Below are positions 3,267 through 38,171 of a stretch of 64,000 nt of DNA, piece by piece. A program made the translations under genes and the position numbers. Position 1 is the stretch's first letter. Each line of letters begins with the position of its first letter. The stretch covers positions 38,619 through 102,618 of the forward strand of contig SUUT01000001.1 in NCBI GenBank assembly GCA_015062385.1. The letters are read 5' to 3'. Under the pieces are notes generated by a model. The model was not told the DNA's origin and made no database searches. It was given only the letters and a program-made list of their open reading frames with translations. The DNA is from Alphaproteobacteria bacterium (GTDB taxonomy: Bacteria > Pseudomonadota > Alphaproteobacteria > CAAHEQ01 > UBA3637).

Positions 3267-3560
3267 TCAATCTTTTGGCGGAACGGGATCATATCCCGAC
3301 TTTCCCCACGGATGACACTTCAAAATACGTTTGAGCGACAGCATAGCACCTTTTATAACACCATGCAACAAAAAAGCTTCTTTTGCATATGCTGAACACG
3401 TTGGCGTAAAACGACAGCAATTCGGTTTGAGCGGTGATAAAATTTTTTGATAAATCCAAATACAGCATAAAAACACCTGCAAACATATCTGCGATAAGAC
3501 TTGTTTTATCCGTTGAAACAACATTTTATTCCCCGATTTCCGAATTGGTTGTTGATACAT
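3267..3560 (-). CDS. yidD: Membrane protein insertion efficiency factor YidD. The true start is probably internal, at Met13.
   Basis: Motifs [14 protein letters not shown]...[17 protein letters not shown]. It overlaps the rnpA 3' end, as is usual. Confidence 0.75.
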
Positions 3561-4497
3561 AAAAAAACTTATCGTTTATTTTTGTTTTTTCACTTGTCTC
3601 CTCGGATAAGGTAGAAGATTGGTTGTTTTGCTCCGCCGGTGTTATCCGTTTACCAATCAAAGTGGAAACACTGTCTTTCTCGTTTTTCCCAACCTCCTCG
3701 GATAAGGTAGAAGATTGGTTGTTTTGCTCCGCCGGTATTATCCGTTTACCAATCAAAGTGGAAACACTGTCTTTCTCGTTTTTCCCAACCTCCTCGGATA
3801 AGGTAGAAGATTGGTTGTTTTGCTCCACCGGTGTTATCCGTTTACCAATCAAAGCGGAAGAACCGTCTTTCTCGTTTTTCCCAACCTCCTCGGATAAAGT
3901 AGAAGATTGGTTGTTTTGCTCCGCCGGTATTATCCGTTTACCAATCAAAGCGGAAGAACCGTCTTTCCCATTTTTCCCGATCTCCTCGAATAAGGTAGAA
4001 GATTGGTTGTTTTGCTCCGCCGATATTATCCGTTTACCAATCAAAGTGGAAACACTGTCTTTCTCGTTTTTCCCAACCTCCTCGGATAAGGTAGAAGATG
4101 CAACCGAATCCGACTTCTCTTTACCGGATAACCGCTGTTCATAATCTGCTTGAACGGCACGCAACAAATACAGTGCATCTTTTTTCAACGCCTCAAAAGA
4201 ACGGGTTGCCGTATTAAAACGACCGATAAAAACATAATTATACCCTATGGGGGCTTCGGGAGCAAAAAACAACCGAACAACTTCTCTCATTCTGCGTCTA
4301 ACCTTGTTGCGAACAACAGCCGACCCCAGTTTTTTTGTTGTAGTAAAACCAACCTGCAAAATATCTTTTTGATTTTCAATTACCTGACAAATCAGTCCAG
4401 ATGAAACATATTTTCGTCCGTTATTAGAGGCCAATAAAAAATATTTACGCTTGCGAATACGAGACGGCAATGTAAACTTTTTTTCACTCATAAACAA
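3526..4497 (-). CDS. rnpA: RNase P protein component RnpA with an in-frame C-terminal extension of about 200 aa. The extension is built from 32-aa tandem repeats.
   Basis: The N-terminal 120 aa match RnpA ([17 protein letters not shown]...[18 protein letters not shown]). The ORF then continues in-frame through about 5.2 copies of [32 protein letters not shown]. Confidence 0.75.
3599..4100. repeat. 96-bp tandem direct repeat, about 5.2 copies (starts at 3599, 3695, 3791, 3887, 3983, with a partial copy at 4079). It lies inside the rnpA 3' coding region.
   Basis: Direct reading: the unit tcctcggataaggtagaagattggttgttttgctccgccggtgttatccgtttaccaatcaaagtggaaacactgtctttctcgtttttcccaacc recurs with a few substitutions. 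Confidence 0.9.
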
Positions 4498-5022: not shown

Positions 5023-5262
5023 TTATTTTTTAAATAAATTACAGTGACAATGTCCCATTTCGGCAATTTCTTTTTCGTGTTCACCACATGGGCAGAAACC
5101 TCGGGATACATCACACGGACAATGACCATCACAAGCATTTAAACACCGATTAATAATCCGATCAGCAAACGGTGTTAATTGATACCCTTTTGATTTTGCA
5201 TATAATTCCAACGCATGTTTAAAATGATTGTTATTATTTAAAACGCTTTCGTCTTTTTCCAT
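5023..5262 (-). CDS. Small Cys-rich protein resembling the ferredoxin-thioredoxin reductase catalytic subunit
   Basis: 79 aa. CPCDVSRGFCPCGEHEKEIAEMGHCHCNLF matches the CPC...CPC...CHC arrangement of FTR-like proteins. Confidence 0.5.
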   Translation of the reverse strand: MEKDESVLNNNNHFKHALELYAKSKGYQLTPFADRIINRCLNACDGHCPCDVSRGFCPCGEHEKEIAEMGHCHCNLFKK

Positions 5263-5278: not shown

Positions 5279-5890
5279 TTATATTAAAAACTGCAAGCCA
5301 TACAAAACAACGGATGCACATAAACCGGCCATAACATCATCCGTCATCACACCAAACGCATTTTGCACTTTTTTGTCAAAATAAGAAACCGGACCCATTT
5401 TAACAATATCAAAAAAGCGAAAAAATGCAAAACCGATTACATAATGATACCACATTATTCCCAAACCGGCAACCCATAAAAAAGTTAATGTCTGCCCGAC
5501 CGTTTCATCAATCACGACAAAACCCGGATCGTGCTTTTCTTGTGTTTTCAACACAATGTGTGTTGCCCACCAACCGATAAAAAACACAACAACCGAAACC
5601 GTCAAAATTCCCAACCATCCATACGGGGCCACAACATAAACAAGTGGCAAAGAACAAAGCGAACCGACCGTTCCGGGAGCTTTCGGGGATAATCCACTTC
5701 CGAACCATGTTGCAAAAATATATGCGATTTTTACCAAAAGCGTTTCTTTTTCTTCCGTCATTTCGGGCTTAATCCGGAGTCTCGCTTTTTCCAAAGACGT
5801 TTCTTTTTCTTCCGTCACTTCGGGCTTGGCCCGAAGCATCGTTTCTTCCAAAGGTAGTTCTTTTTTTATCTGTTGCATCCGTTTCATCAA
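5279..5890 (-). CDS. pgpA: Phosphatidylglycerophosphatase A with an N-terminal repeat extension of about 55 aa
   Basis: GSGLSPKAPGTVGSLCSLPL and TDDVMAG motifs. The N-terminus has two 17-aa repeats (LRAKPEVTEEKETSL / LRIKPEMTEEKETLL), encoded by a 51-bp DNA repeat at about 5720-5830. Confidence 0.75.
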   Translation of the reverse strand: MMKRMQQIKKELPLEETMLRAKPEVTEEKETSLEKARLRIKPEMTEEKETLLVKIAYIFATWFGSGLSPKAPGTVGSLCSLPLVYVVAPYGWLGILTVSVVVFFIGWWATHIVLKTQEKHDPGFVVIDETVGQTLTFLWVAGLGIMWYHYVIGFAFFRFFDIVKMGPVSYFDKKVQNAFGVMTDDVMAGLCASVVLYGLQFLI

Positions 5891-5899
5891 ACACTCTCT

Positions 5900-7342
5900 T
5901 TACGATTTTTTTGTCGGCATCGGAGCCCGAAACTTACTTTTGTTTTTTTCTTGAGAATCAACCGTTACTTCCGGAAGAATTTCTTTCTTCTCCTCTTTTT
6001 CCATCTCCGTTCCGGACATCATCATACTGAAATTAGCTTTTATCTGTTCCAATTCCGCCGAATAACCGACATCTTGTTGATCTTCATCAATGTCATCATC
6101 ATCCATATCAACATCATCATCCAATGGTTCCTCATCATCAAAATCATCATCTGTCGTATCATCATCTTCCTCAATAAATTCTTCATCATCTTCAACAAAA
6201 TCTTCTTCACTATCAAAATCTGACATTGATGCATCTGCATTGACTTCGGAGTCAAATGAATCTTCTGAAACGTCTGCCGATGCAGCTTGTGTTTCAGCTT
6301 GTGTGGGTTGTGCTGATTGATTCACTTGTGCTTGTTGAGTACCTTGTTCCGATTGTGCCGGCAATGCGGATTGTACCTGTTTTTGTTTTAACGGCACTTT
6401 TTGAACCGGATGCGGGGCCGGATCTGTTTCACCGGGTTTCAAATCAAAATAAGCACTTAAAAACGAAGCCAAATCCGGCAATTCGGATGATGGTTCCGCA
6501 TTATTATATCCGATTAAAAAGATGCCTTTTGATTTAAAATATTCAACAGCCTGTTTAGCATTTAAAATACGCCCATCCATAATCAAAATAGCCGATAATA
6601 TTTCCGAATTCGGTTCCGAACGAGCTAATGAAGCCGATGCCCCCAACAAATCTTTTGCCAAACGTTCCATCACGCCCCCTTCGGAATACCAACCACTTTG
6701 GGTAACATCATCCGTAAATTCAACCGACCAATTCACATTCTTTTTGTTCACAATTTCAATCAAGACGGCTCGTGCATCTGTTGAAATAGCCAACGGTACA
6801 CGATTTCCCTCCAATAAGATATGTTGAAATATTTCTACTTTATACTTTTTGGCAAGCGTTGCAACCATTCGTATCATCTGAACCAAATTGGTATGACTTT
6901 TTGCCCCTGGAGCCACAGTTTCCACCTGATTAGGTAATTTAGGAGCAACATACCGACTGGCTTGAACGGTAGAAGGCATTTTGCGAGGCATATGATAAAT
7001 CGGTTTATTTTCATTCAATTCAAATACTTTTCTTTTAATTTTCCGCCGACGAGGAGCCGGTTTAAATTTTTTCCAATTAACCCGATACAGAAAAAACCAC
7101 CCGATAAACCAAAACGGAATCCACAACAACATAACCAACAATAACCGTAATTCCGTTAACGTATTAACCCGCCATTTATAATTGATAAAATCATTGTATT
7201 TTTCTGCCCAAGCCGTGTGGGAGAGCAAATCAAAATCAACCCAATATCCGACAAACGGAACAATCAAATAAAAGTAAAACGGTGTCCAAAAAAGACCTGT
7301 CAATACCAATTTCAAAAAACTTATTTTTTTATTTTTTGCCAT
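5900..7342 (-). CDS. Hypothetical membrane protein (2 N-terminal TM helices) with a Q-rich linker and a 60-aa poly-Asp/Glu C-terminal tail
   Basis: 480-aa ORF. The TM segments are followed by a basic RRRKIKRK stretch. The tail is DDDVDMDDDDIDEDQQD...FDDEEPLDDD, encoded at about 6080-6290. Confidence 0.55.
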   Translation of the reverse strand: MAKNKKISFLKLVLTGLFWTPFYFYLIVPFVGYWVDFDLLSHTAWAEKYNDFINYKWRVNTLTELRLLLVMLLWIPFWFIGWFFLYRVNWKKFKPAPRRRKIKRKVFELNENKPIYHMPRKMPSTVQASRYVAPKLPNQVETVAPGAKSHTNLVQMIRMVATLAKKYKVEIFQHILLEGNRVPLAISTDARAVLIEIVNKKNVNWSVEFTDDVTQSGWYSEGGVMERLAKDLLGASASLARSEPNSEILSAILIMDGRILNAKQAVEYFKSKGIFLIGYNNAEPSSELPDLASFLSAYFDLKPGETDPAPHPVQKVPLKQKQVQSALPAQSEQGTQQAQVNQSAQPTQAETQAASADVSEDSFDSEVNADASMSDFDSEEDFVEDDEEFIEEDDDTTDDDFDDEEPLDDDVDMDDDDIDEDQQDVGYSAELEQIKANFSMMMSGTEMEKEEKKEILPEVTVDSQEKNKSKFRAPMPTKKS

Positions 7343-7367
7343 AAATCTCCCCTTTTAAATACAGCAT

Positions 7368-9659
7368 TTACATTGCCCGTCCGGTTGTACGTGTCGGTTT
7401 TGGGGCTTGATATGTCGGTGTTTGGCCTGAACGTCCCATTGCCAACTGACGTTGTCGTTGCCGATTTGCACTTGCTGCTTCATCATTAGCTTTTTTCTTA
7501 CGGTCAACATCACGTGCCTGTGCATCCAATTCCTCTTTTCGCCGATTATCTACCGGCATACGTGTTCCGTCCGGCATTGTCACAACCGGATTTTTAACCG
7601 TTCCCGAAATTCTAACCTCTGCCAAATCATCCATTTGAACAGATGCCAATGCCTCGGCTTTTTGACGTTCATGTTCATTATCCCGCACATTTTTCGGTGA
7701 TTGTACACCATTTGATCCATGTTGCACGGCATCGGCTTTTGTTTCCCGAACATTATTTGCATTTGATACCTGTTTCGGAGCCTTTACGCCGGTCGATGAT
7801 TGTACAATATTTGGGTTTTGAACATCGGTTGAAGCCTGCAAATCGGCAGTCGGTTGCACACCGCTCGACTGTACATTATTCGGACTTGGCATACCGTTTG
7901 GAACCTGCTCTTTTGTTGAAGACTGCAAACCGGCAGTCGGTTGCACATTGTTCGACTGTACATTATTCGGACTTGATATACCATTTGGTGCTTGCCCTTT
8001 TGTCGAAGCCTGCAAATCGGCAACAGTTTGCTCCAACTCTTGAATCTTTGCCTGTTGAACAGCAACTTGTTCATCCGGAGACATCAATGAAACATTTTCC
8101 ATTTCCTTTGAAGCCGATACGATTTGTTTCATCTCGTCATATGATTGTTTAATACCCGTCATTTCGTAAACATAATTTTTAAATTCGGGCAAATGTGCAT
8201 ATGTTGCTAAATATTGACCGTATTTCTTTCGCTGTGATGATGACATTTTATCAAAATCAACACTTCCATCCGATTTTGTCGGCAATCTTTTTGCAAACTC
8301 TCTTTTCTCCAACAATGCTTTTTCGTATTTGGTATATGGACCTTTTTCCGGAATAATGGCATAATTCGGGTCTTGCAAAATCCATTTTTGTCCGTCACGA
8401 GCCAATTTAGTCGATAAATCCAATTTGCTCAAACCACGATTTCTTAAATTATCGGCAATAAATTCACCCCGTTTTTCAACGGCTTTTTTGGCATCTTCTT
8501 TTTGACTTAAACGTTTTTGTTTTAAATATTCTTTTAAAGAATCCAACGGAACCATTATACCGGCAACAAGAATATCCAATGCAAAATCGGCCATATCTTT
8601 TTCGGATCCGATTTTATCAATATGTTTGGATACCCCTTGCTTATATACCGTTTCCCAATCGGTTTTGCGTTTATCGGCACTACCCAATTTAACACCATCC
8701 ACATAACCGTATTGACCTTTATCTGCAAAAGAATCATTTAATTTACGAATATCTTCTTCTGCTTTATCCGGCTCATTTGTACCAACCTTAAAGGCATCAT
8801 GCAAATCACGCATTTCTTTGGCTTCCTGCGACATCTCAAACGTATTACCGGAACGAATTGTTTCATTTTCCGAATGAGGCGTGCCTGTAAAATCAACTGT
8901 TTTTGTTTCTCCATCCGCCGTATTATCCGTCATCGGTTGCGGGGCAAACCCCGTTTGCATTTCCACATCCGGCGAAAAATTAACATCTGCCGTATTTCCC
9001 GTATCCGTCATATTAATCGTCGTGTCCGGCTGAGACAAATCCAAATGTTCCGTATACAACGGGGTATCCGGTTTAAATTCCACCGTTCCCGTTTCTAAAG
9101 TGCCGGTTTGCGGTTCAACCGCATCCCGATAATCCCGCATACCGGACTTTGTCTCAAACATACCATGTTGTTCATATGTATCCATACGGGCTTCATTTTC
9201 TTGCACAACAGAATTGACCTGTTCTGTTTCTGCCTGCGGTAACGGCCCTTCCTGAAAAGCCTGTGCATAATTTGTCCTCAAATAAGAAACACCGGCTTCT
9301 AATTGCGGTTTTTGTTCCATAAACTGTTCTTCTTCGGCAGAAAGAGCCTGTTCTTGTTTTTCTTTTTTATCTTGCAGATAATGATATGCTTGAACAGCCT
9401 GAACCGTCTGACGAACAAACGTATCCCTTTGAACGGTTGCCTGTACTTGTTGAAACACTTCAGGCTTTGTTTGAACGGACACCTGATTCATCGCCTGTTG
9501 AAGACGCCCCATATCGCCTGTTTGAGCAGCTACCCGTATTTCTCTAATCGGTTGAAGGACCGGCGTTCCGGAAAAAAACTCTTCCATTTCGGCCATTTCG
9601 CCATCCGTTGCCGTTAACAATTTTGCAATTTGTTCTTCACTCATTAAAGATTCAGCCAT
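7368..9659 (-). CDS. Large hypothetical protein (763 aa). It is low-complexity and Q/N/S/T-rich, and contains 31-aa repeats.
   Basis: Long ORF with no recognisable catalytic motif. About 2.4 copies of a 93-bp repeat at about 7838-8040 encode LQASTKGQAPNGISSPNNVQS-like units. Confidence 0.55.
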   Translation of the reverse strand: MAESLMSEEQIAKLLTATDGEMAEMEEFFSGTPVLQPIREIRVAAQTGDMGRLQQAMNQVSVQTKPEVFQQVQATVQRDTFVRQTVQAVQAYHYLQDKKEKQEQALSAEEEQFMEQKPQLEAGVSYLRTNYAQAFQEGPLPQAETEQVNSVVQENEARMDTYEQHGMFETKSGMRDYRDAVEPQTGTLETGTVEFKPDTPLYTEHLDLSQPDTTINMTDTGNTADVNFSPDVEMQTGFAPQPMTDNTADGETKTVDFTGTPHSENETIRSGNTFEMSQEAKEMRDLHDAFKVGTNEPDKAEEDIRKLNDSFADKGQYGYVDGVKLGSADKRKTDWETVYKQGVSKHIDKIGSEKDMADFALDILVAGIMVPLDSLKEYLKQKRLSQKEDAKKAVEKRGEFIADNLRNRGLSKLDLSTKLARDGQKWILQDPNYAIIPEKGPYTKYEKALLEKREFAKRLPTKSDGSVDFDKMSSSQRKKYGQYLATYAHLPEFKNYVYEMTGIKQSYDEMKQIVSASKEMENVSLMSPDEQVAVQQAKIQELEQTVADLQASTKGQAPNGISSPNNVQSNNVQPTAGLQSSTKEQVPNGMPSPNNVQSSGVQPTADLQASTDVQNPNIVQSSTGVKAPKQVSNANNVRETKADAVQHGSNGVQSPKNVRDNEHERQKAEALASVQMDDLAEVRISGTVKNPVVTMPDGTRMPVDNRRKEELDAQARDVDRKKKANDEAASANRQRQRQLAMGRSGQTPTYQAPKPTRTTGRAM

Positions 9660-9723
9660 ATTTCCCTCGCTTTCAATACGTTGTTTTGCACATTATATCA
9701 ATACTTGCATTAATTGTCAAACG

Positions 9724-10359
9724 CTATATTTTCAACGCTTTTAAGAATTTTGCGATTTTAGCATTTTCTTCTATGGCCTCATTCGGTGTTAAAACCATGT
9801 TCCCATTCATATCAGTTGTAATAATCGGAGAAAAATATGCCGGATTGGTAATCAATGTTTCATACGCTTTTTTAGCATCCTTCCGATACATTGTAAAATA
9901 AGAATGCATCAACTTATACCCATCCACCCGAAAATGCTGTTCCATAATCTTGTCGCCAAACGCTTTAACCAACTCTTTACGCCTGTTTTCTTCCTGTCGT
10001 ATTTCATTGAGCACACGGGTTGTTTCCTTTAATAATTCAATATTCCGATTATAAATCGATTCGGCCTGAGATTTCAATTTATATTCCAAATAATCCAAAA
10101 TAACATCCCGCCAAAAAGGCTGATCCGTATAATTATGTTGCACAATCTGAACAACATCTTTAACCTCGGCCGTATTCACATCTGTCAACCCACATAAATA
10201 AGAAACAACGGCACTCGTTTCTTTTTCCACCAATTCAACCGGAAAATTTTGTGGTGTATATTGTGTAATTTCAACAGTTAAAGCCGGTGCTGCCGTTAGA
10301 ACAGCCCGCTGTTCATACAACTTTTTATACAACACATAAAGCATATCTTTTGCTGCCAT
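9724..10359 (-). CDS. Hypothetical protein (211 aa)
   Basis: Clean ORF in an intergenic-sized gap. There are no recognisable motifs. Confidence 0.45.
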   Translation of the reverse strand: MAAKDMLYVLYKKLYEQRAVLTAAPALTVEITQYTPQNFPVELVEKETSAVVSYLCGLTDVNTAEVKDVVQIVQHNYTDQPFWRDVILDYLEYKLKSQAESIYNRNIELLKETTRVLNEIRQEENRRKELVKAFGDKIMEQHFRVDGYKLMHSYFTMYRKDAKKAYETLITNPAYFSPIITTDMNGNMVLTPNEAIEENAKIAKFLKALKI

Positions 10360-10428
10360 TTCGTCCCTCCGTTTTAAATTTTTTTTCTATTATAAACATA
10401 AAAAGATAAAATAATCTATCAAAAAGTG

Positions 10429-10457
10429 TTGTTTTTTTAAAAAAAATGATGTATCAT
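10429..10457 (+). promoter_or_regulatory. Sigma70-like promoter for the three-gene membrane-protein operon
   Basis: TTGTTT (10429-10434), a 17-bp spacer, then TATCAT (10452-10457). AGGAG lies at 10479-10483 and the ATG at 10492. Confidence 0.4.
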
Positions 10458-10491
10458 AGAGATAATAAGCATTTATCAAGGAGACAACACC

Positions 10492-12021
10492 ATGAAAAAA
10501 ATCCCCTATGTTTTTCTTTTAACTTTTCTAATGTTATTTGCTTTGCCGGCTCATGCCGGTTTTTTGGATAGCATCACAGCAACTATTTTCGGTAAAGTGA
10601 TGGAATGGATGGGATTTGGTGCAAACCTTGACGGATATTGTTGGTTTTGTCCTATTTTTACAACTCTTTTCGAAGCAGCCAACCAATTAACAACAGATGT
10701 TATCAATGCAACAAAATCCGAGATTTTAATCTTATTGGGTATCGGGGCAATGTTTTTCATTATTTTCCGTGTCAGCCAAACATTGATTAAACTGCAAGAA
10801 GTTGACTTAATGCAATTTTTAGGGGATTTATTTAAAACACTGGGTCGTGTTCTTATTGCTTCTGCCATCATTGCCGGTACAAATGTGATTATGAACAGTT
10901 TTGTGACACCGGTTTTGGCTTATTCGTTTGATTTTTCTATTGACATTATAAATCATTCCCAAGAAACAGGTTTAATTTCAAATAAAATATGGAGTTCTGC
11001 CGATAGACGACTGGAATATACAGATAATGCCGATGCTCAAATGGCAGCAGCACAAGCATCCAATTTCTTCTCCGGACAGGCATTCTCCCAAGGGTTACAA
11101 CAATCCATGATTGCCATGCTTGCCAAAATCAGTGCCAATTTAGTGGTTGGTATGGCTGTCGGTATTGTACTAATCGTAACGGGCATTTTAGGCAGTTTCG
11201 TATTTCCGGATATCCAATTAACGCTTTCCGGTGCCGTTATTTTTGCCGCATTCAGTATGATATATCTATCGGTACCGTTCCAGTTAATCAACATTGTGGT
11301 TCGTTTGGCGTTTATTACGGCCCTTATGCCGTTTTGGGTTGTATTTTGGGTTTTTAAACCGACAGAAGCATATACCAAAAATGCCTTGAATATGCTTTTA
11401 AACGTTTGTTTAACCATTATGACAACCGGTGTTCTCATGGTTTTGGTCTTTAAATTAATCGGTATGATGTTGCCGGATTCGGATGATATTTTAGCTTCAA
11501 TGGTTCCGGGGTGGGATTTAATTGCAGGTAAAAAGTCTTCCGTGTTCAAGTCCGGCATTTTAATAACCTTGGCTTTGGGTTTCTTGTGTAAAGAATTGAT
11601 TAAAGCTGCTCCGGAATTGGCATCTCGTATCATTCAATCTTATGATGTCAGTATCGGATCCAGCGTTGAAGCAGGTATTATCAAAAGTGCCGGTATCGGA
11701 TTGGGTGGTGGAGCTACGATGCTTGGTCTAGGTACCGTTTTCGGACAAAACAGTTACGATACTCTGGAAAAAGGTGCTCAAAAAATGCGTGGAAACATTG
11801 GCGGTATGCTTGGCATGAAAGGAAAAGATGATACCATTTGGAATATGGGCTCAGGATCATCCAAACCAACAACACCCGGACAATATACCGGCGGTAGTGG
11901 CGGAACCGATAACAAAGGACAACCATCCGGCACATCAACCCCCACACAACCGGCAGGAAACAATACAAATCCAACCGGCAACAACCAAAATCCGCCGGCA
12001 GGAAACAACAAAAACACTTAA
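10492..12021 (+). CDS. Polytopic membrane protein, paralog A of a tandem trio (VirB6/TrbL-like architecture). It has a signal peptide and a Gly/Asn/Thr/Pro-rich C-terminal tail.
   Basis: 509 aa. Signal peptide ...ALPAHA|G, a CWFC motif and at least 6 TM helices. The motif PFWVVFWVFKPTEAYTKNALNMLLN is shared with the next two ORFs. The tail is GNNTNPTGNNQNPPAGNNKNT. Confidence 0.7.
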   Translation: MKKIPYVFLLTFLMLFALPAHAGFLDSITATIFGKVMEWMGFGANLDGYCWFCPIFTTLFEAANQLTTDVINATKSEILILLGIGAMFFIIFRVSQTLIKLQEVDLMQFLGDLFKTLGRVLIASAIIAGTNVIMNSFVTPVLAYSFDFSIDIINHSQETGLISNKIWSSADRRLEYTDNADAQMAAAQASNFFSGQAFSQGLQQSMIAMLAKISANLVVGMAVGIVLIVTGILGSFVFPDIQLTLSGAVIFAAFSMIYLSVPFQLINIVVRLAFITALMPFWVVFWVFKPTEAYTKNALNMLLNVCLTIMTTGVLMVLVFKLIGMMLPDSDDILASMVPGWDLIAGKKSSVFKSGILITLALGFLCKELIKAAPELASRIIQSYDVSIGSSVEAGIIKSAGIGLGGGATMLGLGTVFGQNSYDTLEKGAQKMRGNIGGMLGMKGKDDTIWNMGSGSSKPTTPGQYTGGSGGTDNKGQPSGTSTPTQPAGNNTNPTGNNQNPPAGNNKNT

Positions 12022-12051
12022 AATAACAGACAAAAAACAAGGGAGAACAAC

Positions 12052-13377
12052 ATGAATACTTTTAAACGAATTTGTTTTCAAGTAAAAACCCTTTGGAAAT
12101 GGGGGCTATGTTCTCTTCTGTTTTTTGTAAGCGGTTGTTCCAATTCCATTGACCCGAAAGAAGTAGAAAATTTATTCCGCATCAAAAAAGAAAATTGTTG
12201 GCCGTGTACCATGTATAAAATTACGTGGGAAGCTATCGGCGATTTAATCATTGAGATGTTTCCTATTTTATGCAAAACGGCTCTGGATATTTTAGGAATC
12301 GGATTATTATTTTGGATTACATTTACTGTCGGAAAAATGATTTCGGCATTAAAAGAACCAAACTTAAAAGACTTTTTAACCAATATGGCAACCGTTTTAT
12401 TTAAAGCGTTTGTCGTTGCCGCTGTTTTATATAACTCTCAATTTGTTTATGACTTATTAAGCGTTATTGTTACACCTACGTTAGAAGCATTTATACAAAT
12501 CAGCCGAAACATTATGTTCGCAGACCCAAGCATTGCCAAAAACTTTGCCGCTGCCGAAACATACACGAATATTGCATCTGATTCGACTATTTTCACAACA
12601 AAAGTCGGCAATCAGTTGCAGGATTTAATTTATCGGGTCTATTTGGGATTCCATTCAGGTATCGGTTTAGGGGCAAAAATGATGGCCACACTGGATTTTA
12701 CAACACAAATGTTGGGTCTTGTGGTTATCTTTATTTTCTTTTACCTGATGCTTATGTTCCCGTTATTGTTTATTGAAGGATTTATGCTTTTGGGAGCCGT
12801 TGTCTTTTTCTTCCCATTCTTTTTGGTAGCATATGTCTTCCCTTACACAAAAGGATATTTAACCAGTGCTTGGAAAGTTTTATTTGTCAGTATGGCACAA
12901 ATTGTTTTAACATGTGTTTATATGGCTGTTATGTTAACAGTCATTCGTTCTTACGCTGATGACACATTTTCCATCGGAGCCCAGTTAACGGACCCAACAT
13001 TAATACTGGGAATGAAAAACATGCAACAGCAAGGATTGGCATTTTTTGCCTTGGTATTTGTAATGTTTAAAATGACAAGTGATATCCCGAGTATCTCGGC
13101 AAAATTAGTCAGCGACTTTAACCGTTCCGCTGTATCAAGAGGAATTCAACAGGTCGCCAATATCGGTAAAAGCTTGGGATTATTTGCTGCCGGCATGGCC
13201 ATAAGCGGAACAGGTATTGGGGCCGGAGTTGGAAAAGCTATGATGGCAAAAGCTACAAAAGATGCCGGAAAAACCATGAACGATGCTTTCTCACCAAACG
13301 GCGGAGAAAACACCGGAGACGGTATCAGCGATGCTCAAAAAGCATCTACACAAGTTGTACAGAAACAACCAAAGTAA
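12052..13377 (+). CDS. Polytopic membrane protein, paralog B of the trio. It has a lipoprotein-type signal (VSGC).
   Basis: 441 aa with CWPC and PFFLVAYVFPYTKGYLTSAWKVLFV motifs. There is an RBS, and the gap from ORF A is only 30 bp. Confidence 0.7.
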   Translation: MNTFKRICFQVKTLWKWGLCSLLFFVSGCSNSIDPKEVENLFRIKKENCWPCTMYKITWEAIGDLIIEMFPILCKTALDILGIGLLFWITFTVGKMISALKEPNLKDFLTNMATVLFKAFVVAAVLYNSQFVYDLLSVIVTPTLEAFIQISRNIMFADPSIAKNFAAAETYTNIASDSTIFTTKVGNQLQDLIYRVYLGFHSGIGLGAKMMATLDFTTQMLGLVVIFIFFYLMLMFPLLFIEGFMLLGAVVFFFPFFLVAYVFPYTKGYLTSAWKVLFVSMAQIVLTCVYMAVMLTVIRSYADDTFSIGAQLTDPTLILGMKNMQQQGLAFFALVFVMFKMTSDIPSISAKLVSDFNRSAVSRGIQQVANIGKSLGLFAAGMAISGTGIGAGVGKAMMAKATKDAGKTMNDAFSPNGGENTGDGISDAQKASTQVVQKQPK

Positions 13378-13389
13378 AGGGGAAAAAAC

Positions 13390-15501
13390 ATGAAACGGAT
13401 AATCAAATTTCTTTTACTTTTGGCAACAGCTTTAACCACGGTATTTATTGCACACATAAATCCGTTTAAGGGTGCGTTATTTCCGATTTGTTGTGCTCTC
13501 TCTATTATGATCATATTCGGAACACTCGGTTATTTTACTCTGATTAAAAAACAAAAAATCCTATTCACAATTCCGTTAATATTAAGTATTTGCTGTATGA
13601 CCATTGTTTTACCTGCTTTTGCAGACAACGCCGGAAATGTTGATGCTGCCACAAGTGAGGAATGGCGGAATAAAATATCTGCTGCCGGTGATGCCGTTGA
13701 CAGCGATTCCGAATTTAAAAAATATTATCAAACCGACGACGGTAAAAATGAAGATTATGTTGCAGGATATGAACCGACAACCTTTAATCCGGACACGGCA
13801 GATGCGGCAATCAAAGCCGAGGGTTACTGTCGTGAGCTGAAAATTCCAGATCGAAAATCCGATTCATTGCACGAAAAATGCAAAAAAATCGAACTATATA
13901 ATAATATGGTTGCTAAAATTAAAAATCTAATGGGAACCAGTTGCAGTCCCATTACATCCATCATTAAAAATCTGGTTAATAAGAATGAATGTTGGCCCTG
14001 TGATGTGACAGCATTGGTTTTGGTGTCCATTCAAAAAGTAACTGCTGCCGCATATGAGGTTTTACGCCCAGCCGCCTTATCTCTATTAGGCGTTTTAACA
14101 ATGTTGTGGTTGGCTTATGTCACATTAGCCTTTTTCGGAAAATTCGGTTTCGCCCGTATTTCGGAATATTTAACAAACGTATTAAACAAAATTGTCTTGG
14201 TATTGGTTATTTCCGCCATATTAACAAACAATCAAACAATTTCATCCTTGTATCGATTTACAATTTCACCCGTGGTTGCTTATTCTGCCTCATTAGCACA
14301 GGAATTCTCCGAAAGCGGACGACGTGCCGCTAAAAATGCCGGAAGTGTTTTGGATATGGCACAAAAAATTATGTCTCTTGGGGCTTCCACTGAATGTTCT
14401 TACTGTAAAAACAGAGGAGACACCTCATCAAATACGCTCTTTTTGGATTCGGTTGCAACGAACAGTATTTTATGTATGATATGTACGGTTTATCATCAGG
14501 TAGCCCCGATGATTGCACTGGGACAAGGCATTACCTGTTTTGCCGGAGCGGCCTCTGTTTCACAATCAGATCAATCGGCATTAAGTGCCGCAACCGCACA
14601 TGGTGTAACCCGATTAGGGGCCGGTATCGTCGGCATATTTTTAATCATTATGTTTTCACTTATTATGCTGTTAATTGCATTTCATGTCTTATCATCCATT
14701 TTACAACTGGGATTTGTGCTTATTTTACTACCGCTATGGCTCATTGCCTTTGTATTTAAAGGAACACGAGAATATCTTAAAAACGCATGGGCATTATTAA
14801 TGCATGCCGTTATCTCATTAGTAGCCATTTCCATTTCAACCGCTTTGATTATCATTGGATTTAGTGATTTATTATCCGGCAAATTAGCATTGGCCTTAGG
14901 TTGGGCAATGGTTAAAGGTTCTCCGAATGATATTTTAAGTACATTTACGGGAGAATTAGATCAAACGGCACAAGCTGCCGGTGAAGGTGGCAGTATGTTC
15001 TCCGGTTTAACGGATTCACTTATTCAATATGGCATTGACTCTTTAATCGGTGTTTCCCCGATGCAAGCTGTCTTTTTATTAGTTGCTTTTGCCTTTTTAT
15101 CCGTCAGCATGATAAATGCAGCTCCTGAGTTAGTTGAACGTTTATTCAACTTATGGCTTGGAAAATCCATTGATGCCCAAGGCATGATGATGGATAGTGC
15201 CCGTACAGCCATGAAAGGGGTCGGCGTTATGAGTAGCAGTGCTAAATTATTAGCCGGTGCCGGGGCTTTGGGATTGGGTTACATGAATTCAAAAACCAGT
15301 CAAAAGAAGGTTGAAAATGCTCAAGCAGCCCGCATTCAGAAATACGAGGAAGAACAAAAACAACGTCAAGCAGCTAAAGAACAAACGGGACAACAAACAC
15401 CTACAAATACCACCGGCGGAACAACCGGCAACAGTAGTGGGAATGCTAACGAAAACGATAGCGGTAGCGGAAATAACACATTCCCGACCGGAACAAATTA
15501 A
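13390..15501 (+). CDS. Polytopic membrane protein, paralog C of the trio. It has a periplasmic segment of about 150 aa and a Thr/Gly/Asn-rich C-terminal tail.
   Basis: 703 aa with ECWPC and PLWLIAFVFKGTREYLKNAWALLMH motifs. The tail is QQTPTNTTGGTTGNSSGNANENDSGSGNNTF. Confidence 0.7.
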   Translation: MKRIIKFLLLLATALTTVFIAHINPFKGALFPICCALSIMIIFGTLGYFTLIKKQKILFTIPLILSICCMTIVLPAFADNAGNVDAATSEEWRNKISAAGDAVDSDSEFKKYYQTDDGKNEDYVAGYEPTTFNPDTADAAIKAEGYCRELKIPDRKSDSLHEKCKKIELYNNMVAKIKNLMGTSCSPITSIIKNLVNKNECWPCDVTALVLVSIQKVTAAAYEVLRPAALSLLGVLTMLWLAYVTLAFFGKFGFARISEYLTNVLNKIVLVLVISAILTNNQTISSLYRFTISPVVAYSASLAQEFSESGRRAAKNAGSVLDMAQKIMSLGASTECSYCKNRGDTSSNTLFLDSVATNSILCMICTVYHQVAPMIALGQGITCFAGAASVSQSDQSALSAATAHGVTRLGAGIVGIFLIIMFSLIMLLIAFHVLSSILQLGFVLILLPLWLIAFVFKGTREYLKNAWALLMHAVISLVAISISTALIIIGFSDLLSGKLALALGWAMVKGSPNDILSTFTGELDQTAQAAGEGGSMFSGLTDSLIQYGIDSLIGVSPMQAVFLLVAFAFLSVSMINAAPELVERLFNLWLGKSIDAQGMMMDSARTAMKGVGVMSSSAKLLAGAGALGLGYMNSKTSQKKVENAQAARIQKYEEEQKQRQAAKEQTGQQTPTNTTGGTTGNSSGNANENDSGSGNNTFPTGTN

Positions 15502-15521
15502 TCGACACATCGAGCAAGTTT

Positions 15522-15650
15522 GAAGGAATACGAGAAAGAAAAAAGCAATGCCAACACCTGCCTAGCAGGACAACAAGCTCCCCTCAAACCACTGGCGGAA
15601 CAATCGGCAATAGTGGTGGGAATGCTAACAGAAATGGTACATCAATCGAT
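15522..15650 (+). repeat. Degenerate, frame-shifted duplicate of the 3' end of paralog C (compare 15340-15480)
   Basis: accaccggcggaacaaccggcaacagtagtgggaatgctaacgaaaac versus accactggcggaacaatcggcaatagtggtgggaatgctaacagaaat. The preceding aatacgag(g/a)aaga(a/aa) segment is also duplicated. Confidence 0.5.
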
Positions 15651-15691
15651 TATAAAAAAATCAATATTTCTACATAACGACAGAAAAAATT

Positions 15692-16090
15692 TTAAGGCAT
15701 ACATAAGACGCTCTGGCTGTTGGTTCGTGTGAGCACGAGCACACTACCATCATTGAGATAAACACGATAGGCATCACTGCTACCTGAGGTTATGTTCAAC
15801 CACATCCCGCCACTGCCTATCGAACTCAAATTCGGACATTGTTTTGTCATATCACACTTTGTTTCATCACTGCACTCACATTCACTCAATGGAACTAATG
15901 TCATCCCAATGGCATCACACCATGCATGGGCACTCCACCAATTCATACCAACCTTTGATTTACAATACGTTCCGTGATCATTTCCTTTCAATTCCGTACC
16001 ATAGCCATTTGCACAATCTGCTGCCTGAACACTTATTGGTTGAAGCATGATCAATCCGATAAGTCCCATAATCAACGTTTTTCTTTTCAT
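15692..16090 (-). CDS. Secreted Cys-rich small protein, possibly a C-type-lectin-like fold
   Basis: Signal peptide MKRKTLIMGLIGLIMLQPISVQA. W-x-x-A-x-x-x-C-x-x-x-G-x-x-L (WWSAHAWCDAIGMTL) resembles the CTLD signature. Same strand as the pilin-like gene, 35 bp downstream of it. Confidence 0.5.
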   Translation of the reverse strand: MKRKTLIMGLIGLIMLQPISVQAADCANGYGTELKGNDHGTYCKSKVGMNWWSAHAWCDAIGMTLVPLSECECSDETKCDMTKQCPNLSSIGSGGMWLNITSGSSDAYRVYLNDGSVLVLTRTNSQSVLCMP

Positions 16091-16124
16091 TTCTTTTCTC
16101 CTTTGCTTTTGGTTGATTTTTCAC

Positions 16125-17507
16125 TTATTCTGCCGGTTTCGGGCACGTTGTGTTCTTTTCATCCCACAACGCACACGCTCCATAGACTTTTCCCGTTATT
16201 CCCGCTCCCGCTGCCGTGCAATTTATGTCTTTCCACTGTAAATGGCAGTACATTTTTGGCGGACATCTCTTTTCTAACTTAAATATTCTATTATTATCTA
16301 CTACTACTTCAAAATATGGATGCGTATAAAAAACCGGTAATCTTTGACATTTACCATACAGTGTTCCTGTCGCTCCGGCACTGGCTGTCGGTATTGGCTC
16401 TCCCTTTTTCCACGACGATTTCGTCCAATTTAACGCACAATATTTTTCCGGACTGCTACACTTTTTTTGGGGTGTTACCGTGACTATATTTGCACTTACT
16501 TCTTCACGATACGCTATATTCGGATCCCCAGGCATTATCAATCGTTGACATTTTCCGTATAATGTGCCCGTTGTTCCCGCACTTGCCGTTGGTACCGTTT
16601 CTCCTTTTTTCCATGACGATTTCGTCCAATTTAAAAAACAATATTGATTTGGGACTGTACATTGTGTAGCATGCTTTACCTCTCCTGTAGAACTAACTGT
16701 ATAGGAACAATCTGTTTCGTATGTTTTTTCTCCGATACTTTTTACCTCTTGAACAGAATAACTACAATCCGTAGTGTACCCAAAATCTGTATCCGCCTCA
16801 TAAAATGTATAGATACACGCCCCGTCACTCGGAATACATTCGCCGGCTTTTGTTTCACTGCAAAATTCATCATACCGACAACACCATCCGATTTCTTCTG
16901 CCTCTATCTTGCACGATGTTATCTTTTCATCCGCTCTATCGGCACATAAATCGATACACCCGTCTTCGTCATCGTTCAGCCGTTCGTCAAACCCACATGC
17001 CTGACAAATTTCTTCATCTTCATCACAATATATCCCCTCTTGATTCGGACATTCATTGTTGTTGGCACACGGTATTAACTGTTCTGCCCCGTTAAAGGAA
17101 ACAACAACTTCCTGTGTCTCCGCCGAACAGTCCATCGGCGTATTGTCCATTGTATAAAGCGTGAGTTCGCCGGCATCTTGTGCCAATCTGTTTAAATGAA
17201 TACAGATGTTCTTTTCAACTGCTTCTATCAACACAAAATCATTTTGAGCTTTATCACGTCGAACATAATATGTATAGGGGCTCGGTAATTCTTCTCTAAA
17301 TTCTTCCCATTCATACGGAACACCATCCGTTTGTGACACAAGGTTAATTTGTATCAGCTTGATATCTTTGTAAACCTGATTCGCTTGATATTTATTAAAT
17401 GCATAGCGGTATCCCCCGACTGCGACTATCGTTAATACCCCGATAACCGCTAATACGCCGAGCATTTCTATCATACTTCGGCCTTGTTCATTCAGTTTGA
17501 TTCGCAT
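16125..17507 (-). CDS. Prepilin-leader (class III signal peptide) protein with a Cys-rich repeat ectodomain. The probable start is Met6 of the track ORF.
   Basis: MRIKLNEQGRSMIEMLGVLAVIGVL has Gly at -1 and Glu at +5. The C-terminal 380 aa are Cys-rich, with 67-aa repeats YC(F/A)LNWTKSSWKKGE.PTASAG.TGTLYGKCQRL. The matching DNA repeat is 201 bp (16341/16542). Confidence 0.7.
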   Translation of the reverse strand: MRIKLNEQGRSMIEMLGVLAVIGVLTIVAVGGYRYAFNKYQANQVYKDIKLIQINLVSQTDGVPYEWEEFREELPSPYTYYVRRDKAQNDFVLIEAVEKNICIHLNRLAQDAGELTLYTMDNTPMDCSAETQEVVVSFNGAEQLIPCANNNECPNQEGIYCDEDEEICQACGFDERLNDDEDGCIDLCADRADEKITSCKIEAEEIGWCCRYDEFCSETKAGECIPSDGACIYTFYEADTDFGYTTDCSYSVQEVKSIGEKTYETDCSYTVSSTGEVKHATQCTVPNQYCFLNWTKSSWKKGETVPTASAGTTGTLYGKCQRLIMPGDPNIAYREEVSANIVTVTPQKKCSSPEKYCALNWTKSSWKKGEPIPTASAGATGTLYGKCQRLPVFYTHPYFEVVVDNNRIFKLEKRCPPKMYCHLQWKDINCTAAGAGITGKVYGACALWDEKNTTCPKPAE

Positions 17508-17548
17508 ATTCCCCTCTCTCATAGTAACATTGCTTTATAAGAGAGTAT

Positions 17549-17699
17549 AAAAAAAGGGACCTTTTTTTCCCTATTCAAAACGCAAAAATCGGATTTTTAC
17601 AAAAATGAAAGATTATTGTTTGAGTTGAATAAGTTAATTAAAATTAAAAAAAATGCTAAAAAGTGAAAAAAAGTGTTGCATTTATACCTCCCTTTTTTT
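17549..17699 (-). promoter_or_regulatory. Conserved 150-bp upstream element, copy 1 of 4. It has complementary termini (AAAAAGGGAC ... CCTCCCTTTTT, imperfect here).
   Basis: About 85% identical to 18589-18735, 37941-38088 and 60897-61047. It lies 41 bp upstream of the pilin-like start codon. A TATACT hexamer abuts its proximal end on the gene strand. Confidence 0.7.
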
Positions 17700-17743
17700 A
17701 CGGATACGCCATAGCTCTCCACTAGCCGGTACAAGAGATATTA

Positions 17744-17820
17744 CCCCTTTCAAACTTTATTCAACGGTTCAAAAGTTTTGCAAATCTTGTGTTCGTACTG
17801 AATTTTCTACATCTGCTCAC
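17744..17820. repeat. Conserved 77-bp segment, copy 1 of 2 (repeat B)
   Basis: cccctttcaaactttattcaacggttcaaaagttttgcaaatcttgtgttcgtactgaattttctaca recurs at 18814-18890. A 1-nt indel between the copies argues for non-coding sequence. Confidence 0.6.
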
Positions 17821-17851
17821 TTACTACCGGTCATACGTCATTTGGTGCTAT

Positions 17852-17879
17852 AAAAAAATCCCGATTGTTCTATCGGGAT
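17852..17879 (-). terminator. Intrinsic terminator of the ankyrin gene
   Basis: atcccgat-tgttct-atcgggat is a perfect 8-bp stem. An A7 run precedes it on the + strand, which gives a U-run after the stem on the minus strand. It lies 23 bp beyond the stop at 17902. Confidence 0.6.
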
Positions 17880-17901
17880 TAAGGGTATTTATAAAACTAT
17901 T

Positions 17902-18528
17902 TTAATGTTCATTTCCAATCTGACTATGAACATTTACATCTCTTCGTGATGTTTCATCTATATGAACACTTTGACCATTCTCTTTCAATACAGATTTTAA
18001 ATCAACATCTGTTTTCTGATTTTCATTTGCAGAGACAACCTCATTTATATCTGCCGAATTTTCTTTTACAGAAACCTCTTTAACAACACGTGCTCCTTCC
18101 CGTTTTACGAAACTGGGCATACGAGCACTCCAAAACCCGCCTCTAATTTCCTCTGTCATTTTACCGTCTAAACTTTCAAGTTCTTTTTTCATACCACGTA
18201 CTTTTATAAAATCCGGTATAGAAAGTAGCTCACCCGCAAATCTGAGTATTCCCCATTTCCTCACTTCATATTCAAGCGTAACACGATCTAATGGCGTATA
18301 ACCACGACTATCCTGTCCATTTATATCTGCCCCTTTTTCCACCAGTTTACGTAGTGTATCTTTGTCTGTATGAATAGCAGCAACATGTACGAGCGGTTCT
18401 CCCTCTTTGTTTGGTTTATTAATATCTTCTTTAGAAAGAGTCGGTAATAAAGTATCAATTTTATTCGTATCATTATCCATAATTGCTTTGGTTAATGCTT
18501 CAATTGTTTTATTTGTATTGTTACTCAT
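17902..18528 (-). CDS. Ankyrin-repeat protein (208 aa)
   Basis: EGEPLVHVAAIHTDKDTLRKLVEKGADINGQDSRGYTPLD is a canonical ANK repeat. There is no signal peptide. Confidence 0.8.
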   Translation of the reverse strand: MSNNTNKTIEALTKAIMDNDTNKIDTLLPTLSKEDINKPNKEGEPLVHVAAIHTDKDTLRKLVEKGADINGQDSRGYTPLDRVTLEYEVRKWGILRFAGELLSIPDFIKVRGMKKELESLDGKMTEEIRGGFWSARMPSFVKREGARVVKEVSVKENSADINEVVSANENQKTDVDLKSVLKENGQSVHIDETSRRDVNVHSQIGNEH

Positions 18529-18588
18529 ATTTTATACTCCTTTTGCATATTCATACAAATGTTTCAATCTATATAATTTATATTATAC

Positions 18589-18735
18589 AAAAAGGTACGT
18601 TTTTTTCCCTATTCGAATCGGAAAAATCGATTTTTTGAAAAAACAAAAGATTATTGTTTTATTTGAATAATTTAGTCGCAATTAAAAAAAATTCAAAAAA
18701 GTGAAAAAAATTGTTGCAAAAAAACGTACCTTTTT
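18589..18735 (-). promoter_or_regulatory. Conserved 150-bp upstream element, copy 2 of 4. Its termini AAAAAGGTAC / GTACCTTTTT are perfectly complementary and carry compensatory substitutions.
   Basis: 60 bp upstream of the ankyrin start. On the gene strand TGTATAAT lies immediately adjacent to the element. Confidence 0.7.
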
Positions 18736-18813
18736 GTATAGATAGGAACCTATTTACCTTTCAAAAAAAAGCTCTTTATATAAATCTCCATACGTTAACG
18801 CATATGGAATTAT

Positions 18814-18890
18814 CCCTTTCAAACTTTATTCAGCGGTTCAAAAATTTCGCAAACCTTGTGTTCTACTGAATTTTCTACACCGCTTGCTGA
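18814..18890. repeat. Repeat B, copy 2 of 2
   Basis: See 17744-17820. Confidence 0.6.
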
Positions 18891-37896: not shown

Positions 37897-37940
37897 ATTC
37901 TTCTCCCTTTTTACAGTTGCTCATATATACATACTGTAAT

Positions 37941-38088
37941 AAAAGGGACCTTTTTTTCCCGCTTCAAATGACGAAAATCGGATTTTTGAGAAAACAAAAG
38001 ATTATTGTTTTAGTTGAATTATTTAGTTAAAATCAAAAAAAATCCCAAAATGTGAAAAAAAGTGTTGCAATGATACGTCCCTTTTTTT
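37941..38088 (-). promoter_or_regulatory. Conserved 150-bp upstream element, copy 3 of 4 (termini AAAAGGGAC / GTCCCTTTTTTT)
   Basis: 44 bp upstream of the start at 37896. Confidence 0.7.
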
Positions 38089-38171
38089 ACGGATAATAGC
38101 CGGTATAATCAGCAAATAAAATTAAAAACGGATAAATATTTTCTCGAATATGCCTCTATTTTTTTATCAAT

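Follow-up and report, generated by a model that had tools for sequence, protein, structure and literature searches.

Of the core components of type IV secretion systems (T4SSs), VirB6 is to our knowledge the one that is least understood, and it is known only within complete VirB/Tra machines or in the virB3-virB4-linked arrays of Rickettsiales. In Rickettsiales, four to five tandem virB6 paralogues are syntenic with virB3-virB4 (PMC7648143). The T4SS genes of Anaplasma phagocytophilum, a member of this order, are split among three distal clusters, and its virB6 paralogues carry terminal extensions, two of them having lipoboxes and being predicted lipoproteins (PMC7648143). Here we describe a locus in an Alphaproteobacteria bacterium (GenBank assembly GCA_015062385.1, contig SUUT01000001.1) at which three VirB6-like genes stand beside a different set of partners. 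The window (the whole stretch of DNA analyzed, 64 kb) was read together with up to 10 kb on either side of related loci on their contigs. Positions 5900-18528 of the window are composite: a conserved module (5900-15501), which makes up 9.6 of the block's 12.6 kb, is followed by a variable tail of approximately 3 kb (15692-18528). The module's six genes form a pair of divergently transcribed operons: the minus strand carries A480-B763-C211 and the plus strand V1-V2-V3 (Table 1). It is vertically inherited and belongs to the core genome of a clade of uncultured gut Alphaproteobacteria (at the level of the clade, not of the phylum). We propose, with moderate confidence, that it encodes a T4SS-related envelope apparatus, in which a hetero-oligomeric VirB6-like platform would work with lineage-specific partners and draw on a remote or unlinked energy source.

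The three V proteins are polytopic and mutually paralogous (19-23% identity; pairwise BLASTP E values from 4e-11 to 3e-18). A C[WF]xC motif lies directly ahead of the first transmembrane helix in 95 of 98 V proteins from this and related loci, and reads CWFC in V1 and CWPC in V2 and V3. V1 also has a signal peptide and a Gly/Asn/Pro/Thr-rich C-terminal tail, V2 has a lipobox (FVSGC) that is present in 30 of 31 orthologues, and V3 combines its N-terminal extension with a low-complexity C-terminal tail. When the AlphaFold2 model of V1 was compared with the PDB using Foldseek, the high-probability matches were all chains of TrwI/VirB6 from R388 (ranks 1-6, 8, 9, and 15), the best being 8rt9_F (E = 5.9e-4, probability 1.00, target-normalised TM-score 0.61). 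At the sequence level, an exhaustive profile search placed 1,702 clusters (at 50% identity) in the V family at E ≤ 1e-3; weak Pfam TrbL matches were found in five of the 21 close members scanned and TrbL matches in 38 of the 54 distant ones sampled (best E 2.9e-8), and precomputed TrbL matches exist on relatives at three further loci (L010, L040, and L041, where the match falls on a V2-like gene). Because of the V1 fold match and the TrbL matches in close and distant family members, V1-V3 appear to be a very divergent branch of TrbL/VirB6, whose sequence homology is transitive rather than direct; an earlier reading made from the letters alone (the sequence-only reading) had called the three membrane genes VirB6-like, and the modelled fold and the transitive Pfam evidence agree with it. 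Members of the V family are widely distributed among uncultured bacteria, and none of the distant cluster names that we looked up was annotated. When V2 was run by tBLASTn against collections of 72,556 plasmids and 50,697 phages, no match appeared, a result that speaks against descent from a mobile element.

We gathered related loci through V1 and C211 homologues in metagenome contigs and metagenome-assembled genomes (MAGs), and scanned one genome per GTDB species with a C211 alignment, which yielded 29 loci; all were mapped with hidden Markov models from six orthologue sets, and every open reading frame (ORF) was clustered. The order A<B<C<>V1>V2>V3 was found in almost every locus long enough to contain it (approximately 35 non-redundant loci, including the 29 GTDB species representatives), and the gene order is kept among loci whose C211 proteins are down to 28% identical. 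C211 is present in all 35 mapped loci, for 29 of which it served as the search query, and always adjoins the V array divergently, L009 and L010, the most distant of the loci, included. All but two of the 29 loci are labelled uncultured Alphaproteobacteria (one of the two is given as 'Pseudomonadota' and one as 'Lactobacillales'). Their named sources are animal guts (buffalo, roe deer, yak, and Hadza human, with rabbit known by isolate name), and the nearest relative, RGIG7750 from water-buffalo rectum, has 98% C211 identity. The left junction is also kept: downstream of A480, most genomes have pgpA and then a gene for a 79-aa (amino acid) protein with a CPC/CHC motif. Only 9 bp separate the A480 stop from the pgpA start, and the two are probably co-transcribed; at one locus (L030) A480 remains beside pgpA though it lies apart from C and B. 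Outside the stretch from the 79-aa gene to V3, the neighbours vary by genome (RND efflux, SPOR/M50, Tlde1-domain, and glgA genes), and in this window the neighbour beyond the block on the right is the pfk-lpt segment.

Conservation and composition are those of resident genes. Identities to orthologues in the same three genomes are 68-73% for C211, 62-71% for the A480 core, and 56-66% for pgpA, so that pgpA is no better conserved than C211 or A480. The block genes have GC contents of 0.35-0.43 and third-position GC contents (GC3) of 0.21-0.40, and their codon distances fall inside the housekeeping range; there is no compositional deviation of the block from its host. A shift in GC skew at 10-15 kb coincides with the sole plus-strand genes in this part of the window and, in our reading, reflects the coding strand. 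The sequence-only reading had taken the whole of 5900-18528 for an accessory block inserted between housekeeping segments, which a comparison of synteny, GC skew, and codon usage should bear out. For 5900-15501 it fails: the module is not accessory because it is syntenic in essentially every related genome recovered, retains its pgpA junction, is conserved at the level of core genes, and matches the housekeeping flanks in GC, GC3, and codon usage. That conservation extends over the clade and not over the phylum, the level at which the sequence-only reading would have called the block core, and 15692-18528 is variable as that reading supposed. It had also noted that this is no classical island, rightly so: a tRNA scan found none across the whole window, Pfam and NCBIfam scans found no integrase or transposase domain in the block proteins, no direct repeats flanking the block are among the largest repeat families listed, and such flanking genes as were scanned, or compared with relatives that carry annotation, have ordinary housekeeping functions. 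Hypothetical genes in a row beside housekeeping genes need not be an island, and annotation that assumes so can be trapped by it.

The partners of the V array belong to families without counterparts in the protein-family databases searched. Scans of the nine block proteins against Pfam, NCBIfam, PHROGs, and PADLOC returned ankyrin matches only, and member-by-member Pfam scans of the A480 and C211 families gave no consistent family. C211 represents a new family: its 30 clusters are nearly all 209-217 aa long, share the motif NPAYFSPI, and have no Pfam or NCBIfam match and no PDB match by sequence or profile. Behind its two transmembrane helices, A480 has a cytoplasmic alpha/beta domain of high conservation (roughly residues 150-300), which includes a stretch, VEIFQHILLEG, that is invariant among orthologues; the domain gives way to the acidic tail, rich in D and E, with a short basic motif, RAPMP, at the C-terminus. 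No match to A480 was found in Pfam, NCBIfam, PHROGs, or PADLOC, nor anything meaningful in PDB sequence and profile searches. B763 is low-complexity and cytoplasmic, its repeats (families D7 and D8) lie at 7809-8031, and it evolves fast: it is 27-30% identical to its positional orthologues, and some counterparts at the B position are unrecognisable. Its own final 30 residues are Arg-rich with a net positive charge. The B-position proteins are acidic and disordered overall, and the last 30 residues of 23 distinct ones have a charge of 0 to +6 with one to eight arginines (at least three in most). Positive, arginine-containing C-termini of this kind resemble the C-terminal signals of VirB/D4 substrates, and we consider B763 a candidate cargo or surface component. 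At three rabbit-gut MAG loci (L003, 17735-18523; L012, 1429-2217; L014, 1297-2082) a second, short paralogue of the B763 core, of approximately 262 aa, lies a few kilobases beyond V3.

Other lineages carry larger versions of the cluster. At approximately 15 loci V3 is followed by four same-strand genes, encoding a helix-turn-helix (HTH) regulator (two HTH_3 domains and a weak Peptidase_S24 match), F5 and F7 (acidic proteins of unknown families), and F9, a signal-peptide protein of 399 aa. We tried F9 as a secretin and rejected the assignment as unproven, its Secretin_N match having an E value of only 0.046, which is not significant, and 399 aa leaving no room for a complete secretin domain. 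A second type of cluster (L040-L042) has V1-V2-V3 ahead of a fourth VirB6-like domain, fused to Peptidase_M23, after which come the same HTH protein (approximately 365 bits) and an F5-like gene; two of the three fusions also give a weak or faint VgrG3-like match at the C-terminus. A Tlde1-domain protein adjoins the VirB6-like array in L004 (15305-16135), so that peptidoglycan-targeting domains stand beside such arrays both there and, as M23, in L040-L042. The most distant C211 relative (L010; GCA_024712465.1, JAMQYI012721115.1) lies beside proteins that match TrbL, a T2SSE ATPase, and a giant protein of 3,826 aa; the contig numbering, which runs into the millions, suggests a bacterial symbiont or contaminant in a eukaryotic genome assembly.

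We favour the envelope-apparatus reading of 5900-15501, and the sequence-only reading, which saw in the block the obvious place for a novel surface or secretion system, had picked a reasonable candidate for one. In the mechanism that we envisage, V1-V3, co-transcribed, would assemble into a hetero-oligomeric inner-membrane platform or channel, playing the part that VirB6 has at the base of the T4SS stalk. V2 would be anchored by its lipid, and each V protein would hold its C[WF]xC motif in the periplasm, just before the first transmembrane helix. C211 would be cytoplasmic, possibly an adaptor or chaperone, and B763 might be the cargo that is translocated or displayed; the putative nuclease-fold domain of A480, together with its acidic tail, would offer a docking site at the membrane. 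The ATPase that energizes the whole would be encoded away from the locus.

Several results weigh against this proposal. V1-V3 have no direct match to any Pfam (including TrbL, PF04610) or NCBIfam family at E ≤ 0.1, PDB sequence and profile searches with the V family gave nothing meaningful, and the V1 model, built on 21 homologues, is of medium confidence (predicted local distance difference test [pLDDT] 65). The fold assignment of A480 is weaker: its model has a pLDDT of 63 (50-79 within the domain), the top Foldseek matches (XisH, E = 1e-2 and probability 0.89; Shedu; Cap4; N.BspD6I; and Kpn2I) are weak, eight of 22 orthologues have alanine in place of the expected catalytic aspartate, D189, and the next strand, which reads E196-I-V, lacks an ExK. 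Since the catalytic aspartate is not conserved, the domain may be a non-catalytic scaffold. The roles given to A480, B763, and C211 are guesses from architecture and charge, and the arginine-rich tail of B763, a weak signal, is a lead only as far as export is concerned. Secretion itself is a prediction, with no ATPase, VirB3, VirB5, VirB8, VirB9, or VirB10 linked to them: VirB3, VirB4, VirB5, and VirB8-VirB11 were found neither in the scanned parts of the window nor within 10 kb of the approximately 35 related loci. No VirB4-, VirB11-, or VirD4-like ORF with a Walker A motif occurs within that distance of the related loci, where the lone ATPase candidate is the T2SSE-type protein of the distant L010, 5 kb away; in the scanned parts of the window no T4SS ATPase was seen, and approximately 24-48 kb is occupied by lipopolysaccharide-core and housekeeping genes. 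Finally, the HTH regulator, F5, F7, and F9 are absent beside V3 in the subclade of this window, and tBLASTn found none elsewhere in the 64 kb.

The main rival, unlikely in our judgment, is that a canonical P-type T4SS is scattered over the chromosome in the manner of the Rickettsiales rvh system, with the VirB6 triad as one of its islands, the other VirB and VirD4 genes lying elsewhere and A480, B763, and C211 being unrelated or accessory. The source organism is alphaproteobacterial, and the tandem paralogues, their extensions, the V2 lipobox, and the housekeeping surroundings are all as in Rickettsiales; virB3 and virB4, though, which are syntenic with the Rickettsiales virB6 array (PMC7648143), occur within 10 kb at none of the approximately 35 loci. 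What always accompanies the array here is C211, frequently joined by the HTH regulator, F5, F7, and F9, and these all belong to unknown families; this pairing, too, counts against the scattered-T4SS reading.

Boldest of all, and offered tentatively as an improbable alternative, is the idea that the V triad with its C[WF]xC motif forms, together with C211, A480, and the B-position protein, a new envelope translocation system that would work without VirB4, VirB11, and VirD4. Its partners would also include the HTH/S24-like regulator, F5, F7, and F9 of the sister lineages and the VirB6-M23 fusion.

We think it rather improbable that the module is a non-secretory complex for envelope homeostasis or biogenesis, acting on lipid or peptidoglycan and re-using the VirB6-like fold. 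The tight and conserved linkage of A480 to pgpA, a phospholipid-synthesis gene with which it is probably co-transcribed across the 9-bp gap and beside which it stays in L030 when it is split from C and B, would be expected under this explanation, as would the fusion of a V-like domain to an M23 peptidoglycan hydrolase in L040-L042, the core-gene level of conservation, and the lack of a linked ATPase. The fast-evolving, disordered B protein and a dedicated HTH/S24-type regulator fit secretion or interaction better, and we know of VirB6/TrbL proteins from T4SS contexts only.

Still less probable, and in our estimate very much so, is a domesticated remnant of a conjugative or DNA-translocating element, active in DNA uptake or export, with the A480 domain processing DNA at the membrane. 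VirB6 homologues occur in both DNA-uptake and DNA-release T4SSs, the best fold matches of A480 are PD-(D/E)xK nucleases, and HTH regulators with an S24-like (CI/LexA-type) domain are typical of mobile elements. Yet no relaxase, coupling protein, integrase, or VirB4 is nearby, the V2 search of plasmids and phages was blank, the catalytic aspartate of A480 is not conserved, and the locus has no compositional signature. A defence island was also considered and rejected, given the lack of a PADLOC match, the fixed position, and the core-level conservation. It is scarcely credible that all 12.6 kb should be an accessory block, specific to the lineage and devoted to host interaction: the non-syntenic genes of the tail (one of them ankyrin, two with a shared multi-copy leader) and the varying right flank of the module speak for it, but 5900-15501 is syntenic over 29 species-level genomes and further contigs, with the pgpA junction, core-gene-level conservation, and native codon usage noted above, so that this explanation is largely refuted for the module and survives for the 3-kb tail only.

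Table 1. Positions of the module, the variable tail, and other features (window coordinates unless a locus is named)
Feature	Position	Strand	Description
79-aa CPC/CHC-motif protein	5023-5262	-	syntenic neighbour outside the block, follows pgpA
pgpA	5279-5890	-	syntenic neighbour outside the block, beside A480
A480	5900-7342	-	480 aa; inner-membrane protein, two N-terminal transmembrane helices, acidic D/E tail
B763	7368-9659	-	763 aa; Q/N/S-rich, three 29-aa repeats
C211	9724-10359	-	211 aa; soluble, new family
C211/V1 intergenic region	10360-10491		132 bp; AT-rich, divergent, presumed bidirectional promoter region
V1	10492-12021	+	VirB6/TrbL-like polytopic membrane protein
V2	12052-13377	+	VirB6/TrbL-like paralogue, predicted lipoprotein
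V3	13390-15501	+	VirB6/TrbL-like paralogue, 190-aa N-terminal extension
Cys-rich secreted protein	15692-16090	-	132 aa; signal peptide
Protein with pilin-like N-terminus	16125-17522	-	465 aa; Cys-rich
Leader cassette, copy 1	17523-17800	-	core 17536-17706, plus D13 17740-17794
Ankyrin-repeat protein	17902-18528	-	208 aa
Leader cassette, copy 2	18574-18863	-	core 18574-18744, plus D13 18809-18863; upstream of ankyrin gene
Paralogues of the 465-aa gene	36787-37896 and about 58761-60950	-	shared pilin-like N-terminus GRSMVEMLG[VI]LAVIGVL
Leader, third copy	37925-38095	-	
Leader, fourth copy	60884-61054	-	
VirB6-like/Peptidase_M23 fusions	L040 10044-14027; L041 13090-16992; L042 9026-12931		roughly 1300 aa each

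The ORF map places all nine genes of the block where the sequence-only reading had put them, with transcription converging, as it had said, between 15501 and 15692, and both copies of the regulatory element that it had described in the block are present (copies 1 and 2 in Table 1). In the presumed promoter region between C211 and V1, sigma-70-like matches are weak and, in a promoter and terminator scan compared with shuffled sequence, not above chance. The last 50 nt or so of the V3 coding tail (15409-15460) are repeated downstream in the intergenic region (15588-15639, 85% identity), which looks like a remnant of a duplication or of a shifted stop.

The genes of 15692-18528 are non-syntenic in relatives, and they are the only truly variable part of the block; we take them to encode putative secreted or surface proteins. 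The 132-aa gene was found only in one other contig, which is 99% identical (L008). The label 'lectin-like' given to its product comes down to a non-significant PDB match to the mosquito C-type lectin mosGCTL-20 (E = 0.05). For the 465-aa protein, the pilin leader is likewise a tentative label: its N-terminus, GRSMIEMLGVLAVIGVL, is type-IV-pilin-like, the segment QGRSMIEMLGVLAVIGVL fits, by eye, the pattern G-x4-E followed by a hydrophobic helix, and residues 8-63 have three non-significant matches, to geopilin, PilA, and a fimbrial protein (E = 0.04-1.3), with no N_methyl match in Pfam or NCBIfam. It matches other loci solely through this N-terminus of approximately 50-80 residues. The window has three paralogous genes with the leader, of which its gene is one (repeat families D4 and D5); of the other two products, one has teneurin-type EGF domains (Pfam EGF_TEN, 3.5e-10) and the other has three internal repeats of 462 nt (58957-60180). 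Directly downstream of V3, and on its strand, L005 and L006 have a gene with a pilin-like leader of this kind. The ankyrin assignment is firm (Pfam Ank_4, E = 2.9e-10 and 40.6 bits against a cutoff of 22.7; Ank_2, 29.4 against 27.3), although matches of this protein to other loci are through generic repeats only. A role in host interaction, which the sequence-only reading had given to the entire block, has this one short ankyrin protein in the variable tail as its basis.

The regulatory element is a leader of approximately 190 nt, with four copies in the window, all on the minus strand, which sit 30-50 nt upstream of the three pilin-leader Cys-rich genes and of the ankyrin gene. An A7GGGAC segment at its 5' end is pairable with a GTCCCT7 segment at its 3' end, approximately 130 nt away, and in the copy at the ankyrin gene both sides have changed in a compensatory way (GGTAC/GTACC). 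A local hairpin, GGGA-A7-GGTCCC followed by a U run, is the alternative with which the long-range pairing competes; the leader might act as an attenuator-like switch or be a promoter cassette with inverted repeats. Rfam gave no match to it or to any other part of the window, and blastn did not find it in the related loci. The best explanation that we can offer for the 465-aa and ankyrin genes is that they belong to a separate gene set sharing this leader.

Three neighbouring genes drew our attention on their own account. The 5' end of pgpA has a 57-nt tandem duplication (5729-5842), which gives an ORF of 203 aa compared with 160-172 aa in relatives, and the true start codon may lie downstream of the duplication. 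The 79-aa protein, always found after pgpA, has 80-87% identity in four of five compared relatives and 35% in the fifth (L007), with a weak match to the beta chain of ferredoxin-thioredoxin reductase (E = 0.012); we describe it as a putative, very conserved small redox protein. The rnpA ORF (3526-4497, minus strand) contains five to six tandem repeats of 96 nt (32 aa) at 3502-4195 and has a product of 323 aa; in the near-identical contig L008 the product is 225 aa, which points to a recent repeat expansion in an essential gene.

No account of such a cluster turned up in our literature searches. Throughout a clade of uncultured animal-gut Alphaproteobacteria, a VirB6 triad is a fixed part of the chromosome, co-conserved with proteins of unknown families and with no linked ATPase. 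If a scattered T4SS proves to be the explanation, the locus would be a second domesticated example outside Rickettsiales and would bear on the evolution of these systems in free-living or gut-associated relatives; alternatively, it would reveal another kind of machine that uses the VirB6 fold. In both cases it supplies defined families (C211, A480, the B-position proteins, the HTH regulator, F5, F7, and F9) for metagenome surveys, in which C[WF]xC plus a lipoprotein paralogue can serve as the signature.

Set beside known systems, the A480 model has the same alpha-beta-beta-beta-alpha-beta topology as PD-(D/E)xK proteins such as XisH, the nuclease domain of Shedu, and Cap4, but the domain differs from them in its two-helix membrane anchor, in the acidic tail that follows it, and in the replacement of aspartate by alanine in the orthologues mentioned above; no defence-system model matches it. 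TrwI/VirB6 of R388 (PDB 8rt9, 7o3v, and 8rtd) provides the best, and the sole high-probability, matches to the V1 model, and both are polytopic helical proteins of the inner membrane. The two are only 14-17% identical, with a model of no more than moderate confidence; the gene for TrwI occurs once, within a complete plasmid VirB1-11/D4 operon, whereas here there are three chromosomal paralogues and no other VirB gene is linked. The rvh T4SS, as in the sodB-virB operon of A. phagocytophilum, is the closer likeness: like the module it is alphaproteobacterial, chromosomal, and vertically inherited, it has tandem VirB6 paralogues with N- or C-terminal extensions, some of them lipoproteins (here the V3 N-terminal extension, the V1 and V3 C-terminal tails, and V2), and it lies in housekeeping surroundings with its T4SS genes not in a single locus (PMC7648143). 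In the gut clade, by contrast, the upstream neighbour is at every locus the divergent C211 and never virB3-virB4, the paralogues number three rather than four to five and those of the window fall below the Pfam TrbL thresholds, and the array is marked by its family-specific C[WF]xC motif and by novel partners: C211, A480, the B-position protein, the HTH/S24-like regulator, F5, F7, and F9.

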